Origin: Escherichia phage L14 | Reading direction: 5' to 3' (one strand) | Length of the DNA stretch: 64,000 nucleotides | Sequence record: OQ992558.1 | Part shown: positions 16,904 through 64,000 of the stretch, piece by piece | Numbering within the stretch: the first letter of the stretch is position 1 | Layout of the letters: each line of letters begins with the position of its first letter | Notes under the pieces: model-generated | The model's input: only the letters and a program-made list of their open reading frames with translations | What the model was told of the DNA's origin: nothing | The model's database searches: none | Program-made: the position numbers and the translations under genes

Positions 16904-19168
16904 TCATAATTTACAGGATGAACAATCTTCAGCTTTTGGAGTTTCTATTTCATAATCATCAGTACCAGAACCATCGCGTGTATTATGATAATAGAAATTT
17001 TTAATGCCATAATACCATCCGTATAGCATGTCATCAATCATTATTGACATTGGAACCTTTCCTTTTGGAAAAATCTGCGGATCATAATATGTATTCGCTG
17101 AAGCTGATTGACATACCCATTTCAGCATAATAGCTACCTGCGTAAGATAAGGTTTATTACCTTTCTTGGCTAATTTCCATGTATAATCATAGAGGTCTAT
17201 GTTATGCTCAATATTCGGAACAACTTGATTAAATGAACCATCTTTTGATTCTTTAACACTTACCGGTCCGCGTGGAGGCTCGATGCCGTTTGTACTGTTA
17301 GATACCTGACTGGACGATTCACAAGGCATAAGTGCTGATAATGTGCTATTACGGATGCCAAAGAGCTTAAGGTCTTCCCGCAGCGCCGACCAGTCACAAA
17401 CGTATTTTGGAGCTGCGATTTGGTCAATCTTTTTATTGTACCAGTCGATAGGTAATTCGCCTCGAGACCAACGAGTGTCTGAATAATATTCGCAAGGTCC
17501 TTTTTCTTTGGCGAGCTTAATGGATGCTTTAATGAGTCCATACTGTAATCTCTCAAATAATTCATGTGTTAAATCGTTAGCATCTTCATAAGAAGCAAAG
17601 TTACTTGCCAGCCAAGCTGCATAGTTGGTAACACCTACACCAAGGTTACGGCGCTTTTTAGCTTTTTCTGCTTCAGGAACTGGATATCCTTGGTAATCCA
17701 ACAGATTATCAAGAGCACGAACTTGAACTTCTGCCAATTCATTAATTTTATCTTGGTCTTGCCAGTCAAAATTATCTAGTACGAATGCAGAGAGAGTACA
17801 CAATCCAATTTCAGCATCAGGACTATTCACATCATTTGTTGGAATAGCAATTTCACAGCACAAGTTACTCTGACGAATAGGCGCCTTTTCACGAATAAAC
17901 GGAGTATAGTTATTCGTATTATCAATGAACTGCACATAAATCCTTGCGGTTCCTGAACGTTCAGTCATGAGCAATTCAAATAGTTCACGGGCTTTAATAC
18001 GCTTTTTACGAATATTAGGGTCTTTTTCTGCTGCTTCGTATAATTCACGGAAACGGTCTTGGTCTTTAAAATAAGAATAATAAAGCTCGCCACCCATTTC
18101 ATGCGGACTGAACAAAGTAATGTAATCATTCTTTCCGAATCGTTCCATCATCAAATCATTCAGTTGAACACCATAATCCATATGACGAATGCGGTTTTCT
18201 TCTACGCCTTTGTTATTTTTCAAAACAAGAAGATTTTCAACTTCCAAATGCCAAATAGGATAATAAGCAGTAGCAGCGCCGCCACGAATTCCACCCTGTG
18301 AGCATGATTTAACAGCAGTCTGAAAATGTTTCCAAAAAGGAATAACACCAGTATGGCGTACTTCACCCATGCCAATCTTAGAACCTTCAGCACGAATCAT
18401 ACCAACGTTAATACCAATTCCAGCGCGTTTAGAGATATATTCAACAATTGAAGCAGAAGCCTTATTGATAGACTTCAGTGAATCGCCTGCCTCAATAACA
18501 ACACATGAACTAAACTGCCGAGTTGGAGTACGGCAACCAGCCATAATAGGAGTTGGTAATGAAATCTGTCGAGTAGATACCGCTTCATAAAAACGGATAA
18601 CATGTTTTAATCTATCAACAGGTTCATCTTGATGCAATGCCATTCCAATAGTCATAAATGCAAACTGTGGAGTTTCATAAATTTGACCAGTGGTTTTATC
18701 TTTAACTAGATATTTTTCTTTTAATTGCATCGCCCCGGAATAAGTAAATTCCATATCCCGCTCGTGCTTAATTTTTGATTCTAAAAATGTAATTTCTTCT
18801 GCTGAATATTTTGACAATAATTCAGGGTCATATTTACCTTCATTTACACAGTAAGAAATATGGTCAATAAATGAACGTGGTTCATACTGCCCATAAACAT
18901 GCTTACGAAGAGCGAACATTAAACAACGTGCAGCTACATATTGATAATCAGGCTCTTCAACCGAAATAGAATTCGCAGCGGCCTTAATGACAATAGTCTG
19001 AATATCATCAGTTGTCATTCCATCACGGAGATAAGATTTAATATTTTCATATAATTCATAAGGATCTACTGATGTTCCTTCAGCTGCCCAAGATAAAACT
19101 TTAATAATTTTTTGCGGGTCAAAGCTCTGAGAAACACCACTACTTTTGATAACATTAATTAATTGCAT
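16904..19168 (-). CDS. nrdA: aerobic ribonucleotide reductase large subunit
   Basis: 754 aa, recognised as T4 NrdA. Confidence 0.95.
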   Translation of the reverse strand: MQLINVIKSSGVSQSFDPQKIIKVLSWAAEGTSVDPYELYENIKSYLRDGMTTDDIQTIVIKAAANSISVEEPDYQYVAARCLMFALRKHVYGQYEPRSFIDHISYCVNEGKYDPELLSKYSAEEITFLESKIKHERDMEFTYSGAMQLKEKYLVKDKTTGQIYETPQFAFMTIGMALHQDEPVDRLKHVIRFYEAVSTRQISLPTPIMAGCRTPTRQFSSCVVIEAGDSLKSINKASASIVEYISKRAGIGINVGMIRAEGSKIGMGEVRHTGVIPFWKHFQTAVKSCSQGGIRGGAATAYYPIWHLEVENLLVLKNNKGVEENRIRHMDYGVQLNDLMMERFGKNDYITLFSPHEMGGELYYSYFKDQDRFRELYEAAEKDPNIRKKRIKARELFELLMTERSGTARIYVQFIDNTNNYTPFIREKAPIRQSNLCCEIAIPTNDVNSPDAEIGLCTLSAFVLDNFDWQDQDKINELAEVQVRALDNLLDYQGYPVPEAEKAKKRRNLGVGVTNYAAWLASNFASYEDANDLTHELFERLQYGLIKASIKLAKEKGPCEYYSDTRWSRGELPIDWYNKKIDQIAAPKYVCDWSALREDLKLFGIRNSTLSALMPCESSSQVSNSTNGIEPPRGPVSVKESKDGSFNQVVPNIEHNIDLYDYTWKLAKKGNKPYLTQVAIMLKWVCQSASANTYYDPQIFPKGKVPMSIMIDDMLYGWYYGIKNFYYHNTRDGSGTDDYEIETPKAEDCSSCKL

Positions 19169-60957: not shown

Positions 60958-61194
60958 TTAACCACCTATTTCTGTAGGCGTAAACATTGCAGCATTCTTA
61001 GTTTTCCAAGTTGTTGCATCGGAAACTACATCAGAATAAGCTGCTTTTTCTGACGGAAAGATTTGATAATGAGAATCTGCAATACGGTGTTCATTTGAAT
61101 ATACATCAAATGCTACAGAAACTTCCATACCTTTAACTTCTTTGCCTTCACCTGCTGGATGAGTAAAGGTCTTGATGTTAACGAAACCACCCAT
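60958..61194 (-). CDS. soc: small outer capsid protein
   Basis: 78 aa; shares FVNIKTF ... SVAF ... HYQxFPSEKAAYS with my memory of T4 Soc; late promoter upstream. Confidence 0.85.
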   Translation of the reverse strand: MGGFVNIKTFTHPAGEGKEVKGMEVSVAFDVYSNEHRIADSHYQIFPSEKAAYSDVVSDATTWKTKNAAMFTPTEIGG

Positions 61195-61233: not shown

Positions 61234-61403
61234 TCAGTCTTCAATGAAAACTTGTGCCAGGAATTCGTGTTCATCTTGAATTTGTTTATATAAAGCCATT
61301 ACAGCATTTATATTAGATCTATCTACTTTAAGTTGATAGGCATACCACTCGTATAAATTAATTAAAGCTTTTTGTCGTCTAATAAATTCTTCTTTGGATA
61401 TTT

Positions 61404-61604
61404 TCATTTTGAATGCTCTATAATTAATTTTAAGGCTTCTTTACTGACAAAAATTTCATCAAGACCTTCTTCTACACCCCAATCAACTACACGAAGCTGA
61501 TTAGATAAGAGCTCGTATGTGAGCTCCTTGTCATAATTTTTAAATAGCTGGTCAATACGTTTCTTGTGGGCTTTCTTAAGCTGGCGTTTATTTAAACGAG
61601 CCAT
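61404..61604 (-). CDS. hypothetical protein (66 aa) between 56 and soc
   Basis: coding-strand ORF. Confidence 0.5.
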   Translation of the reverse strand: MARLNKRQLKKAHKKRIDQLFKNYDKELTYELLSNQLRVVDWGVEEGLDEIFVSKEALKLIIEHSK

Positions 61605-62122
61605 TAATAACCTCGGTCTTGACGAGCGAAGTTTTCAGCATTTTTCAGATAATAAAGTTTAAAGATTTCTTCAGCCGTAAGACCGAGGCCTTGGAACATG
61701 TTCAGAACGAAATGAAGAATATCAATCATTTCGAATTTAATTTCCAACTGGTCTTGTGGAGACAAATCAGTAATCAGAGTTTCACGTCGTTCACCATGTT
61801 GAGCTTTCCAAGGCTTCCATACAGCAGATGCATCTTTTTCACCATTGCTCATACCACCAAGAGAAGTCAATAGTTCGCGGAATTCATCATCAATATAATC
61901 TTTCTGATTACGCAGCCAATCAACAACTTCACCCGCAGTAGCCAAATCATCAGGATGACGGTTATATTCAGGTTTATCTTTAGCTAAACGAACCTGCAGA
62001 GATTTCTGCATATCAAGCATAACTTGCAACGGGTCTTTTTCATCACCGAGAATATCCCAGTATTCATTTTGAGCTTTATCAGCGCCTTCAATCAGTTGTG
62101 AACATTCATTAAAGTATGCCAT
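61604..62122 (-). CDS. 56: dCTP/dCDP pyrophosphatase (MazG-like)
   Basis: 172 aa from ATG at 62122 (MAYFNECSQLIEGADKAQNEYW...); ORF-track N-terminal extension is hydrophobic and probably not translated. Confidence 0.88.
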   Translation of the reverse strand: MAYFNECSQLIEGADKAQNEYWDILGDEKDPLQVMLDMQKSLQVRLAKDKPEYNRHPDDLATAGEVVDWLRNQKDYIDDEFRELLTSLGGMSNGEKDASAVWKPWKAQHGERRETLITDLSPQDQLEIKFEMIDILHFVLNMFQGLGLTAEEIFKLYYLKNAENFARQDRGY

Positions 62123-62193
62123 TATTTTTCCTTTCAATTCATGGGTTAGTAGATTAATTATACAATAAATATATAAAGCAATAAGGAGGACAT

Positions 62194-62394
62194 ATGGTAC
62201 AAAAATTAATGGCACTTGTTAATGCCATCAAAGGTAATAAAAAGCGTATAGCTTTTACTATTTCTGCTATGGTAGGAATTTTACTCTGGAACTTTATTTT
62301 ATCACCAATTGCAATTGCGCATGGTGTTAATATTCCAGTAGTTACTCTTGATACATTCGTAGATCTAGCATTTGCTTTAGTTGGGTTAATTTAA
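62194..62394 (+). CDS. small membrane protein (66 aa) on the opposite strand between 61 and 56
   Basis: strong AGGAGG SD 5 nt before ATG; two predicted TM helices; only convincing plus-strand ORF in a minus-strand block. Confidence 0.4.
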   Translation: MVQKLMALVNAIKGNKKRIAFTISAMVGILLWNFILSPIAIAHGVNIPVVTLDTFVDLAFALVGLI

Positions 62395-63419
62395 ATCTTG
62401 GCATATTTAGATAACCGCATTTTAGCCATTAACCCCTGGGCAATATTATTTTTCATATATTCCATAATTTGTTCAGGGGTTGCACCTTCCTTTCTAATCA
62501 TATCATTAACATCTTTTGATTTCCAGGGAGATTTATCCCAAAACATAACCCTTTCTCCTGCATCAACTAATTTAGTCATTCGCTTGATAGTGTCAGGGTG
62601 ACGAGGTTCATTATCTAAAACCCACACTCGTCTATCTTTAAATGGAACAACTTCTAGGTCTAATTGACCACCCGTAATAGCTATACCATTTTCAATAAAA
62701 AGTGAATCTATAGGTCCTTCTAGAACATATACATCACCATCTTTAACTCGTTCGACTCCATATATTTTTGTTGCCTCAGGATAAGCTTTGATGGTGATAT
62801 ATTTTTGAGGAGCATCTTTCTTTAATGCACGTCCTTGAAAAGACTCAGCTTTTCCGTTAGCATTATAAATTGGAATAACAAGACGAGGCTCAGGTGTTTC
62901 CTTTTTATATGTTCCTGGAGCTATACTATTAACTAATTTAGGCCATTCAGTTGTAAACCAAAGATATTTCCATTTATCCTTTGGAATACAACGAGCTTTT
63001 ACATATTTTATAATTGGATGGTCTTCCGCCAGTTTATCTAATCGAACACATGACGGAAGAGATTTAATTATTTTCTTCTCAGGTTGTTTAGGAAGTTCTT
63101 TAGGTTTTTCTACTGGACGACTTTTACCTTTTTCTTTTCTTATTTCAAAGATATACTCACGATATAAATCAGGTTCAAACTCCTTTAAATATATTCCGAT
63201 TGGCGCATGATAGTTACAGTTATAACAATGAATATTTCCTTCATTATTATCACCATAATACCATCCACGAGCTTTATTCTGGTCGGTTTTTGAATCTCCA
63301 CAAACAGGGCATCTAAACCGCAATTTAAAAGTTGAACTATTATTTACTTGTGTGAATTTAGGTAAATGAGCTAATGCACGATACGCAAACTCATTATCAA
63401 TCCAAGGTATTGATGACAT
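62391..63419 (-). CDS. 61: DNA primase
   Basis: 342 aa; N-terminal zinc ribbon CPVCG ... HCYNC and TOPRIM VLEGPIDSLF. Confidence 0.92.
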   Translation of the reverse strand: MSSIPWIDNEFAYRALAHLPKFTQVNNSSTFKLRFRCPVCGDSKTDQNKARGWYYGDNNEGNIHCYNCNYHAPIGIYLKEFEPDLYREYIFEIRKEKGKSRPVEKPKELPKQPEKKIIKSLPSCVRLDKLAEDHPIIKYVKARCIPKDKWKYLWFTTEWPKLVNSIAPGTYKKETPEPRLVIPIYNANGKAESFQGRALKKDAPQKYITIKAYPEATKIYGVERVKDGDVYVLEGPIDSLFIENGIAITGGQLDLEVVPFKDRRVWVLDNEPRHPDTIKRMTKLVDAGERVMFWDKSPWKSKDVNDMIRKEGATPEQIMEYMKNNIAQGLMAKMRLSKYAKI

Positions 63420-63421
63420 TT

Positions 63422-63586
63422 TTACTCTTCTTTTTCTTTAGATTCCTCTTTTTTCTTTTTAGGAATCTGTTCAGGACCTTTATTTACTACAGCACCTGAC
63501 GTTGTTCCAGTGGAGATATTTTCAGGATTACCACCTGAATCTCCAGCTACCATATCTTCTTTAATAAATTCTTTATATGTTTTCAT
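63422..63586 (-). CDS. small charged protein (54 aa)
   Basis: not in ORF track; ATG with GAGG RBS immediately after stop of the upstream ORF; lysine/glutamate-rich tail. Confidence 0.35.
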   Translation of the reverse strand: MKTYKEFIKEDMVAGDSGGNPENISTGTTSGAVVNKGPEQIPKKKKEESKEKEE

Positions 63587-63587
63587 A

Positions 63588-63944
63588 TTAACCTCTATTC
63601 ATAAAAGCATTAAAAATTTGGTCATCAATCGATGGAATAGTAACTTTTTCTGCATCATTTAGCAAATCATTAATTTCATCAGATAGCATAACGCATGTAC
63701 CTTTATTTCCTGTAATTGCTACTGCACAATTACGAACGTTTTCTTTATCAAATTTTAGGTTAATATTTTCGTAGTGAAAATCCTTTAATGCCGAATATAT
63801 TTTTAAAATGAAATTGTCTTTTACTACAATAAACCCAACCTCACTATTAAAACGTGGTTCATGGAAACTGTAATAAACCTTTTCATCTATAAAATCGTAT
63901 GAAATTTTTTCCATTTTTAAATATGAAAATTCAGAACTATACAT
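63588..63944 (-). CDS. hypothetical protein (118 aa)
   Basis: coding-strand ORF with GAGG RBS. Confidence 0.5.
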   Translation of the reverse strand: MYSSEFSYLKMEKISYDFIDEKVYYSFHEPRFNSEVGFIVVKDNFILKIYSALKDFHYENINLKFDKENVRNCAVAITGNKGTCVMLSDEINDLLNDAEKVTIPSIDDQIFNAFMNRG

Positions 63945-64000
63945 ACTAACCTCTAATTATTCACCTACCACTTCAGCGATGATATTTTTATTATTAAAGT

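Follow-up and report, generated by a model that had tools for sequence, protein, structure and literature searches.

In a 64,000-nucleotide stretch of the Escherichia phage L14 genome (record OQ992558.1; hereafter the window), from a T4-like phage of the genus Tequatrovirus, the interval between gene 56 (dCTPase) and gene 61 (primase) is very likely an ordinary Tevenvirinae junction, probably ancestral, whose dam slot, filled in T4 and T2, is empty and where the dmd group of genes was never present. This gene layout is common among T4-like phages, and we found the same junction, at a coverage of at least 80%, in 328 phage records. The locus gives no reason to expect sensitivity to RnlA or LsoA, which removes a false alarm raised by the first-pass annotation, and the absence of dam is a common state among T4-like phages. 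The comparison also brought out a small, predicted membrane-protein gene under purifying selection, which T4 and T2 both keep next to gene 61 and which their records (NC_000866 and AF158101 for T4, LC348380 for T2) omit.

Layout of the 56-61 junction

Genes 56 and 61 had been described as nearly adjacent, about 270 bp apart, and the measured gap is 268 bp (62123-62390; Table 1). The gene 56 product (172 aa) aligns with residues 1-171 of T4 gp56 at 73.8% identity, from the ATG at 62122 to position 61607, and is 99.4% identical to the gp56 of RB32 and 70.9% identical to that of T2. The earlier choice of 62122 as the start of gene 56 was right, because the T4 gp56 alignment begins there and the annotated 519-bp coding sequences of RB32, Sf21 and Paracelsus agree; a longer, GTG-initiated frame reaching 62215 is an artefact of the ORF lister. 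On the opposite strand, a 66-aa ORF converges on gene 61, whose end it overlaps by 4 nt, and diverges from gene 56, leaving a spacer of 71 bp (62123-62193) between the two ATG codons. This spacer lies at a mosaic breakpoint: identity to T4 is 96.8% on the right of 62183 and 77% in gene 56 on the left, and since identity to T4 breaks at this point, recombination clearly acted there.

The spacer also holds a predicted MotA-type middle promoter of gene 56, defined here as a sigma-70 -10 element TAnnnT with the MotA box (a/t)(a/t)TGCTT(t/c)A some 12 bp upstream, and the sequence agrees with this definition. Equivalent elements are annotated in two other records, in SA20RB as a T4-like middle promoter and in T4 (X01416) as the mot-box and -10 of P(M)16.53, the promoter to which ours corresponds and whose transcript primes oriA according to a note in NC_000866. 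Gene 56 would be transcribed from it at middle times. A scan for sigma-70 promoters returned no more sites than were found in shuffled sequence.

Table 1. Features at and around the junction of genes 56 and 61, in window coordinates.
Feature	Position	Strand	Basis or remark
soc (small outer capsid protein), divergent allele	60958..61194	-	47% identical to T4 Soc; phrog_1715, E = 2.8e-40
57-aa ORF in the slot of T4 segF	61234..61407	-	phrog_9053, E = 3.5e-26
66-aa ORF directly downstream of gene 56	61404..61604	-	phrog_5782, E = 1.2e-38; SA20RB note 'less similar to Soc.2'
Gene 56, dCTPase/dUTPase, RB32-type allele	61604..62122	-	full-length homology to T4 gp56
MotA-type middle promoter of gene 56 (predicted)	62157..62180	-	MotA box TGCTTTA 62180-62174, 11-nt spacer, -10 TATAAT 62162-62157
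Late-promoter-like AATAAATA	62164..62171	+	7/8 bases of the T4 late-promoter consensus TATAAATA; last base at -23 from the ORF ATG
Shine-Dalgarno AGGAGG of the 66-aa membrane-protein ORF	62184..62189	+	four bases before the ATG
66-aa predicted membrane protein gene (RB32ORF030w, phrog_2024)	62194..62394	+	converges on gene 61, diverges from gene 56
Terminator-like hairpin (62231-62206) followed by a T-run	62196..62231	-	downstream of gene 61, inside the 5' end of the + strand ORF
Gene 61, DNA primase, 342 aa	62391..63419	-	98.8% identical to T4 gp61 over 342 aa
Gene 61.1	63422..63586	-	96.3% identical to T4 gp61.1; phrog_1823
118-aa RB32ORF033c-type ORF, paralogue of the gp61.2/AdfA C-terminal half	63588..63944	-	95.8% identical to RB32ORF033c
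sp (spackle), 3' end, cut by the window end	63957..64000	-	63998-63960 is a 100% match to the 13 C-terminal residues of T4 Sp

The dam slot in T4-like phages

The dam methylase of T4 is missing at this locus, as had been proposed. A tblastn search with T4 Dam (259 aa) gave no homologue in the 64-kb window (best E = 5.8) and no match at E <= 1 between 14.4 and 126 kb of EPIMAM01, a syntenic relative with the same gene order, in which this region takes in the rest of the genome beyond the window. Since window position 1 falls at about 121.4 kb of EPIMAM01, the window and this region together are equivalent to a whole genome.

Genes 56 and 61, the 66-aa ORF with its Shine-Dalgarno sequence, and the gene 56 MotA middle promoter are common to the window, T4 and T2. 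The T4 locus (NC_000866 16270-18963) has in addition dam preceded by an upstream region of 112 bp, both lying between the MotA box and the ORF, with the mot-box abutting the dam stop codon (X01416), while the T2 locus (LC348380) has dam and a gene for 181 aa in the same place; the window has none of these, and its gene 56 allele is only 74% identical to that of T4. We suggest that in T4 a cassette of about 880 bp, made up of dam and the upstream sequence belonging to it, entered between the MotA box and the small gene, and that T2 would have received dam together with the further 181-aa gene at the same insertion place. That dam was inserted in T4 and T2 is probable because Mosigvirus and Gaprivervirus also have the 56-ORF-61 order; loci of this form without dam, with a spacer of 84-88 bp, were found in Mosigvirus ST0, Gaprivervirus DK-13 and TH40, and the direction of the insertion is read from these three outgroup loci rather than from a phylogeny. 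The spacer between the small gene and the gene 56 middle promoter looks like a recurrent insertion site, empty in the window, occupied by dam in T4, and by dam plus a weakly restriction-enzyme-like gene in T2. The dam gene of T4 is dispensable.

The reverse order of events, in which the dam cassette of a 56-dam-ORF-61 ancestor disappeared from the RB32/Sf21-type lineage, seems unlikely to us. It would suit the presence of dam at exactly this place in both classical T-even phages, T4 and T2, and the active recombination recorded by the mosaic breakpoint in the spacer; however, the dam-less ST0, DK-13 and TH40 loci, with their spacers of 84-88 bp, come from two other genera, and the Dam homologues of other T4-like genera occupy different genome positions. 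The dam-less form is also the commoner one, with 328 records carrying the L14-type junction versus 182 carrying a Dam at least 90% identical to that of T4. The T4 dam cassette is flanked by ATTAATT repeats, but the spacer sequence of the window does not fit what a simple deletion between them would leave.

The 66-aa ORF and its predicted product

The first-pass annotation had placed a small membrane-protein ORF with a strong AGGAGG site on the strand opposite genes 56 and 61, and its coordinates, its frame and its predicted membrane character were all borne out. Across the seven sequences compared, which come from three genera and share 50-56% amino-acid identity, no frame but that of the ORF is open in every one. 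Second codon positions vary least (11-13 differences, versus 30-42 at positions 1 and 3), and dN/dS values of 0.10-0.43 point to purifying selection in at least three Tevenvirinae genera. The opposite-strand placement between genes 56 and 61 is kept in Tequatrovirus, Mosigvirus and Gaprivervirus, and a GGAG core upstream of the ATG is retained in T4, ST0, DK-13 and TH40. Residues 2-66 of the protein match the whole phrog_2024 profile (positions 1-65 of 65, E = 1.5e-31), and ORFs of this family were found in 692 phage records. Its RB32 counterpart, RB32ORF030w, annotated there as 'similar to RB69ORF029w', has the same position and length, with 98% DNA identity across the junction, and differs from the window copy in one residue (V25 in RB32, A25 in the window).

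Searches with the ORF gave no match in Pfam or PADLOC. HMMER against 1.84 billion representative proteins yielded nine matches at E <= 0.001, comprising three full-length homologues (61-65 aa), three short copies that are truncated or frameshifted, and three long proteins (1255-1822 aa), the top one of which gave no BLASTP alignment and was taken as spurious. In a word-indexed protein search, all entries returned were near-identical and named 'hypothetical protein', apart from one automatic 'Holin' label, and a scan of IMG/VR added only near-identical loci. The fold search against viral models recovered the family's own member and, at 24-31% identity, two proteins of 63 aa (one from Enterobacter phage CIP9), and no match of known function. 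Literature searches covering the ORF names, unannotated T4 ORFs and Ribo-seq, T4 transcription-start maps and the distribution of dam returned nothing on the ORF or the junction, and the Petrov 2010 review mentions neither dam nor dmd.

That the ORF is no gene at all, the interval being the 3' untranslated region and terminator of gene 61 plus promoter DNA in which a frame stays open by chance, is very improbable. This reading could draw on the terminator-like hairpin that lies on the - strand inside the 5' end of the ORF (-12.4 kcal/mol, z = -3.0), on the missing annotation in the T4 and T2 records examined, and on searches that found neither a Pfam family nor an experimental report, but it conflicts with the frame kept open across three genera, the coding-type substitution pattern and the conserved Shine-Dalgarno sequence, as well as with the existence of a PHROG profile and of probable 63-aa relatives such as that of CIP9. 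Moreover, the hairpin was not found outside Tequatrovirus: its T4 version is weaker (z = -1.88), and in ST0, DK-13 and TH40 no equivalent fold stood out from shuffles. We do not regard it as a conserved RNA element, since it is convincing in the window only.

Upstream of the ORF, a late-promoter-like AATAAATA is nested between the -10 element and the MotA box of the opposite-strand gene 56 promoter. In T4 late promoters, read by the gp55-RNA polymerase, transcription starts about 6-7 bp downstream of TATAAATA, and the match here extends to 7/8 bases only, the first T of the consensus being replaced in every lineage and the first base being variable. The form nATAAATA nevertheless stands at -17 to -23 in the window, T4, ST0, DK-13 and TH40 though the flanks have diverged, and ATAAATA occurs just 15 times in 128 kb (both strands of the window). 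The small gene may be transcribed late, through the gp55 late-transcription apparatus.

The predicted protein carries a net charge of +5 over residues 1-18 and a hydrophobic core at residues 19-41, and its AlphaFold2 model (mean pLDDT 75.6) has helices at residues 2-12, 16-42 and 52-62. Its topology is uncertain because the C-terminal helix, 11 residues long in the model, is too short to span the membrane. We envisage that the product inserts in the inner membrane, its basic N-terminus facing the cytoplasm, and could act at the envelope late in infection. Tentatively, and as a possibility to which we give somewhat less than even weight, the ORF would encode a genuine late-expressed inner-membrane protein conserved across the T-even phages, T4 and T2 included, whose role at the envelope could be measured, be it in lysis timing, lysis inhibition or superinfection exclusion, or in countering membrane-acting defence. 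If true, the T4 map would gain a gene that it now lacks.

Small phage membrane proteins that automatic annotation labels 'holin' (the UniRef name of vB_EcoM_OE5505 gp034) resemble the ORF product in size, hydrophobicity and basic N-terminus, and in what looks like a late promoter. We consider the label unsupported for this ORF, which has no holin-family match in Pfam, falls in the PHROG category 'unknown function' and is not next to an endolysin gene; in the syntenic EPIMAM01, the endolysin gene e lies at 62.2 kb, about 46 kb from the ORF. T4-type phages use holin T, which is unrelated.

dmd and the flanking genes

The first-pass annotation had placed the T4 block from 61.1 to dmd between genes 61 and 56, and had named a different T4 order at this locus as a finding that would refute its reading; for dmd the order is indeed different. 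The annotated T4 order (NC_000866) is soc-segF-56-dam-61-61.1-61.2-sp-61.4-dmd-41, in which dam is the sole gene between 56 and 61, while 61.1, 61.2, sp, 61.4 and dmd follow on the gene 41 side of gene 61. What had been described as the absence of a whole block holds for dam; past gene 61 the window has 61.1, an AdfA-like ORF and the end of sp. In T4, dmd (61.5), tifA (61.4) and adfA (61.2) form an 'anti-TA island' between genes 61 and 41 (PMC9391042; PMC11257639), away from the 56-61 junction, where this group appears never to have been. The window enters the island on its gene 61 side and stops within sp, probably about 570 bp before the expected start of dmd, so the positions of tifA and dmd fall past its end.

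A search for Dmd (PF17587; 60 aa) gave no match in the 64-kb window (best E = 0.15), and its T4-equivalent position lies past 64000, outside the window. Four phages that share the 56-ORF-61 junction (EPIMAM01, Sf21, Paracelsus and RB32) have dmd next to gene 41, and a Logan metagenomic contig with an identical gp61 (L016) has the order dmd-sp-118aa-61.1-61-ORF-56; where compared, the Dmd proteins of the relatives are 98-100% identical to T4 Dmd. Because phages of the same architecture have dmd about 570-750 bp beyond the point that matches the window end, the gene would be expected just past 64000, by synteny with relatives 96-99% identical, and nothing points to its absence. The suggestion that this phage has no counter to RnlA/LsoA-type toxins is unsupported, given the dmd beside gene 41 in its same-junction relatives. 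A deletion of the 61.1-to-dmd block together with dam from between 61 and 56, with loss of the RnlA/LsoA antitoxin, is scarcely credible: genes 56 and 61 are indeed only 268 bp apart and searches of the 64-kb window detected no Dam and no Dmd, but the T4 block stands on the far side of gene 61, where the window retains 61.1, the AdfA-like ORF and the sp end, and every same-junction relative examined has dmd beside gene 41.

The flanking genes differ from those of T4 on both sides. The full-length 61.2/adfA of the T4 island is replaced in the window by the 118-aa paralogue of its C-terminal half, which matches Pfam PF23813 (AdfA) at E = 1.8e-8, above the gathering score, over profile positions 114-211 of 211 only. 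We took as AdfA a full-length domain of about 210 aa that includes the region around residue 164, which is implicated in DarT1 neutralisation (PMC11257639), and comparison with the T4 protein found no full-length 61.2 in the window between the 118-aa ORF and sp, whose stop codon reads at 63957-63959. The dmd-sp block itself varies among phages, since the Logan contig is without 61.4/tifA between dmd and sp. On the far side of gene 56, T4 has segF between 56 and soc, whereas the window has two small ORFs there instead, and the counterparts of the 57-aa one are recorded as hypothetical proteins in Sf21, Paracelsus and EPIMAM01.

Gene order around the junction and the position of dmd

Both the raw sequence and the ORF listing bear out the local layout proposed in the first-pass annotation, in which genes 61 and 56 are separated by about 270 bp that hold an opposite-strand 66-aa ORF with an AGGAGG site; the exact gap is 268 bp. 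The proposed gene 56 start at 62122 also stands, being the biologically sensible ATG and the point where the tblastn alignment to T4 gp56 starts. A longer gene 56 frame, starting at a GTG and reaching 62215, is artefactual; the frame antisense to the hydrophobic small ORF is open by chance in some phages and is interrupted by a stop codon in DK-13, TH40 and a further compared sequence (L015). Hundreds of Tequatrovirus genomes were matched when the locus and the window's last 24.5 kb were searched by megablast; none was identical, the closest (96-98.6% identity) being Sf21, D5505, UAB_60, Paracelsus (BASEL Bas36) and RB32-type phages.

Features of the locus; tblastn queries were translations of the annotated T4 genes
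Feature	Position	Strand	Remarks
Soc match	61188-60973		47% identity to T4 (tblastn)
Two soc-56 ORFs	61234-61604	-	57 and 66 aa (phrog_9053, phrog_5782)
Gene 56	62122 (ATG) to 61604	-	
gp56 match	62122-61607		73.8% identity to T4, residues 1-171 (tblastn)
Middle promoter, MotA-type	TGCTTTA 62180-62174; TATAAT 62162-62157	-	11-nt spacing; read from sequence
AATAAATA	62164-62171	+	nested between - strand MotA box and -10; AGGAGG then follows
Small ORF	62194-62394	+	66 aa; AGGAGG at 62184-62189
Hairpin and T-run	hairpin 62231-62206; whole element 62196-62231	-	within codons 5-13 of + strand ORF
Gene 61	62391-63419	-	342-aa ORF (ORF list and raw sequence)
gp61 match	63419-62394		98.8% identity to T4 over 342 aa (tblastn)
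gp61.1 match	63586-63425		96.3% identity to T4 (tblastn)
118-aa ORF	63588-63944	-	paralogue in the 61.2 slot
sp	63957-64000	-	
Sp match, last 13 residues	63998-63960		100% identity to T4 (tblastn)

The same annotation had reported a 61.1-dmd block missing between genes 61 and 56. This reading is not supported, because it was built on an incorrect T4 map that merged two separate intervals. The order annotated in the T4 RefSeq record is soc, segF, 56, dam, 61, 61.1, 61.2, sp, 61.4, dmd, 41, with dam as the sole gene between 56 and 61 and the 61.1-to-dmd block beyond gene 61. The latter region was termed a possible 'anti-TA island' by Srikant et al., in which dmd acts against RnlA, tifA (61.4) against ToxN, and adfA (61.2) against DarT (PMC9391042; PMC11257639). 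Beyond gene 61 the window starts normally, running through 61.1, a 118-aa ORF and the end of sp to its own end. EPIMAM01 has the same architecture (soc, two small ORFs, a 519-bp gene 56, the + strand ORF, 61, 61.1, the 118-aa ORF and sp) and continues with 61.4, dmd and 41, its Dmd being 98.3% identical to that of T4. Coordinate transfer from this genome would place dmd at about 64570-64752, some 570 bp past the window's end. The gene is also carried by Sf21, Paracelsus and RB32, all with the window's junction, and a metagenome-derived Logan contig (SRR16894778_8824, L016) combines a gp61 identical to the window's with a Dmd identical to T4's. On that contig (3575-4132) sp comes directly after dmd, 81 bp on, so that 61.4/tifA, the ToxN inhibitor, is missing; the content of the anti-TA block therefore differs among close relatives.

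The slot of T4 61.2 (adfA, the anti-DarT factor) holds just the 118-aa paralogue in the window, whose match to the Pfam AdfA family covers the C-terminal half (E = 1.8e-8). Since sp follows it directly, the usual place of adfA lacks the full-length gene. Both a 118-aa-type gene and full-length 61.2 are present in RB32 and Sf21, whereas T4 and Paracelsus have the full-length gene alone; the window's arrangement was found in 297 records, PP01 and pSs-1 among them.

Absence of dam and probable history of the 56-61 interval

The claim that dam is absent from the locus was confirmed, as tblastn with T4 Dam detected no homologue in the 64-kb window. Window position 1 corresponds to about 121.4 kb of EPIMAM01, so that the window together with EPIMAM01 14.4-126 kb is equivalent to a whole genome, and this composite gave no Dam match at E <= 1. 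The absence is real but common: in the phage collection, the window's junction occurs in one piece in 328 records, and a Dam with 90% or higher identity to the T4 protein in just 182. In T4, dam is a dispensable gene. ST0 (Mosigvirus) as well as DK-13 and TH40 (Gaprivervirus) have 56, a divergent small ORF and 61 without dam, and Dam homologues of other T4-like genera lie at unrelated genome positions. On the simplest reading, the 56, ORF, 61 arrangement is ancestral and the T4/T2 lineage probably acquired dam by insertion.

The site of insertion can be placed exactly. On one side, the dam stop codon of T4 directly adjoins the mot-box of the gene 56 middle promoter; on the other, T4-specific DNA stops shortly before the ribosome-binding site of the small ORF. 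A sharp breakpoint near 62183 in the window coincides with this site: to its right (ORF, 61, 61.1) identity to T4 is 96.8%, and to its left the gene 56 DNA is 77% identical, the encoded gp56 being 99.4% identical to that of RB32, 74% to T4 and 71% to T2. The junction is thus both a recombination boundary and an insertion site.

In T2 (LC348380), the same slot holds dam and a further 181-aa gene, T2_032 (L021 2365-2910), within the dam cassette. Its product shows weak similarity, below threshold, to the DpnII restriction endonuclease (Pfam, E = 0.0096) and to a PADLOC type II restriction-enzyme model (E = 1.1e-4), a hint of a possible origin of the T-even dam cassette in a GATC restriction-modification module. 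In DK-13 (L006 3372-4121), the small ORF and gene 61 are separated by an inserted homing endonuclease gene, which makes the 56-61 interval a repeated target for mobile insertions. The neighboring soc-56 interval contains two small ORFs in the window and also in T2, whereas in T4 it is occupied by segF, a homing endonuclease gene.

Predicted promoter elements of the spacer

The 71-bp spacer between the start codons of 56 and the small ORF contains elements for both strands. On the - strand, the motifs read as a canonical MotA-type middle promoter, similar to those annotated in SA20RB and T4 (P(M)16.53); the RefSeq note links the T4 transcript to oriA priming. On the + strand, ATAAATA lies at -17 to -23 from the small ORF ATG in the window, T4, ST0, DK-13 and TH40, with differing flanks; T4 retains the motif even though its upstream DNA there comes from the flank of the dam cassette. 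Because this rare motif is kept at a fixed position despite the differing flanks, we infer a late-type promoter for the small ORF, non-consensus and probably weak. ATAAATA occurs 15 times in 128 kb (the window, both strands), about one third of the base-composition expectation, and 8 of the 15 sites are the full TATAAATA; this rarity fits selection against spurious late promoters.

The small ORF family

The small ORF belongs to an already-known hypothetical gene family, RB32ORF030w (phrog_2024, unknown function category), for which the RB32 record notes similarity to RB69ORF029w. What remains of interest is a conserved, predicted small membrane protein omitted from the T4 and T2 records examined: T4 (17738-17938, +) and T2 both encode the ORF, which lacks annotation in NC_000866, AF158101 (AF158101.6) and LC348380 and is annotated in the recent Pyrodigal-annotated T4 record OZ209023. 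By tblastn, 692 phage records contain it, of which 502 match at >=90% identity and 190 at <60%, the latter including Mosigvirus and Gaprivervirus (44-56% identity among those listed). Three observations support a protein-coding role: seven pairwise comparisons gave dN/dS of 0.10-0.43, second codon positions showed 11-13 differences vs 30-42 at first and third in four between-genus comparisons, and this is the sole frame open in all seven compared sequences.

The hairpin and T-run within the ORF resemble a terminator of the gene 61 transcript, so that the 5' end of the ORF may serve two purposes; the hairpin folds at -12.4 kcal/mol (z = -3.0). Since the T4 equivalent is weaker (z = -1.88) and none of ST0, DK-13 and TH40 has an equivalent fold distinguishable from shuffles, the hairpin is a lineage-specific feature and was rejected as the explanation of the ORF's conservation.

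At its N-terminus the encoded protein is basic (net +5 over residues 1-18). Residues 19-41 are hydrophobic, and the protein also has a conserved HGV..P turn and, towards the C-terminus, a hydrophobic segment that includes two acidic residues. AlphaFold2, from a shallow alignment, placed helices at 2-12, 16-42 and 52-62 (mean pLDDT 75.6). As a working model, we propose that the protein is made late and in small amounts and sits in the inner membrane, where its N-terminus would be cytoplasmic and it would act at the envelope. No Pfam or PADLOC family matched it. When 1.84 billion representative proteins were searched exhaustively, the only matches were small-protein homologues, truncated copies and three long proteins; the top long-protein match yielded no alignment in BLASTP and was considered spurious. 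Nothing supports the 'Holin' label on one UniRef family member. A fold search added probable 63-aa relatives, one of them in Enterobacter phage CIP9.
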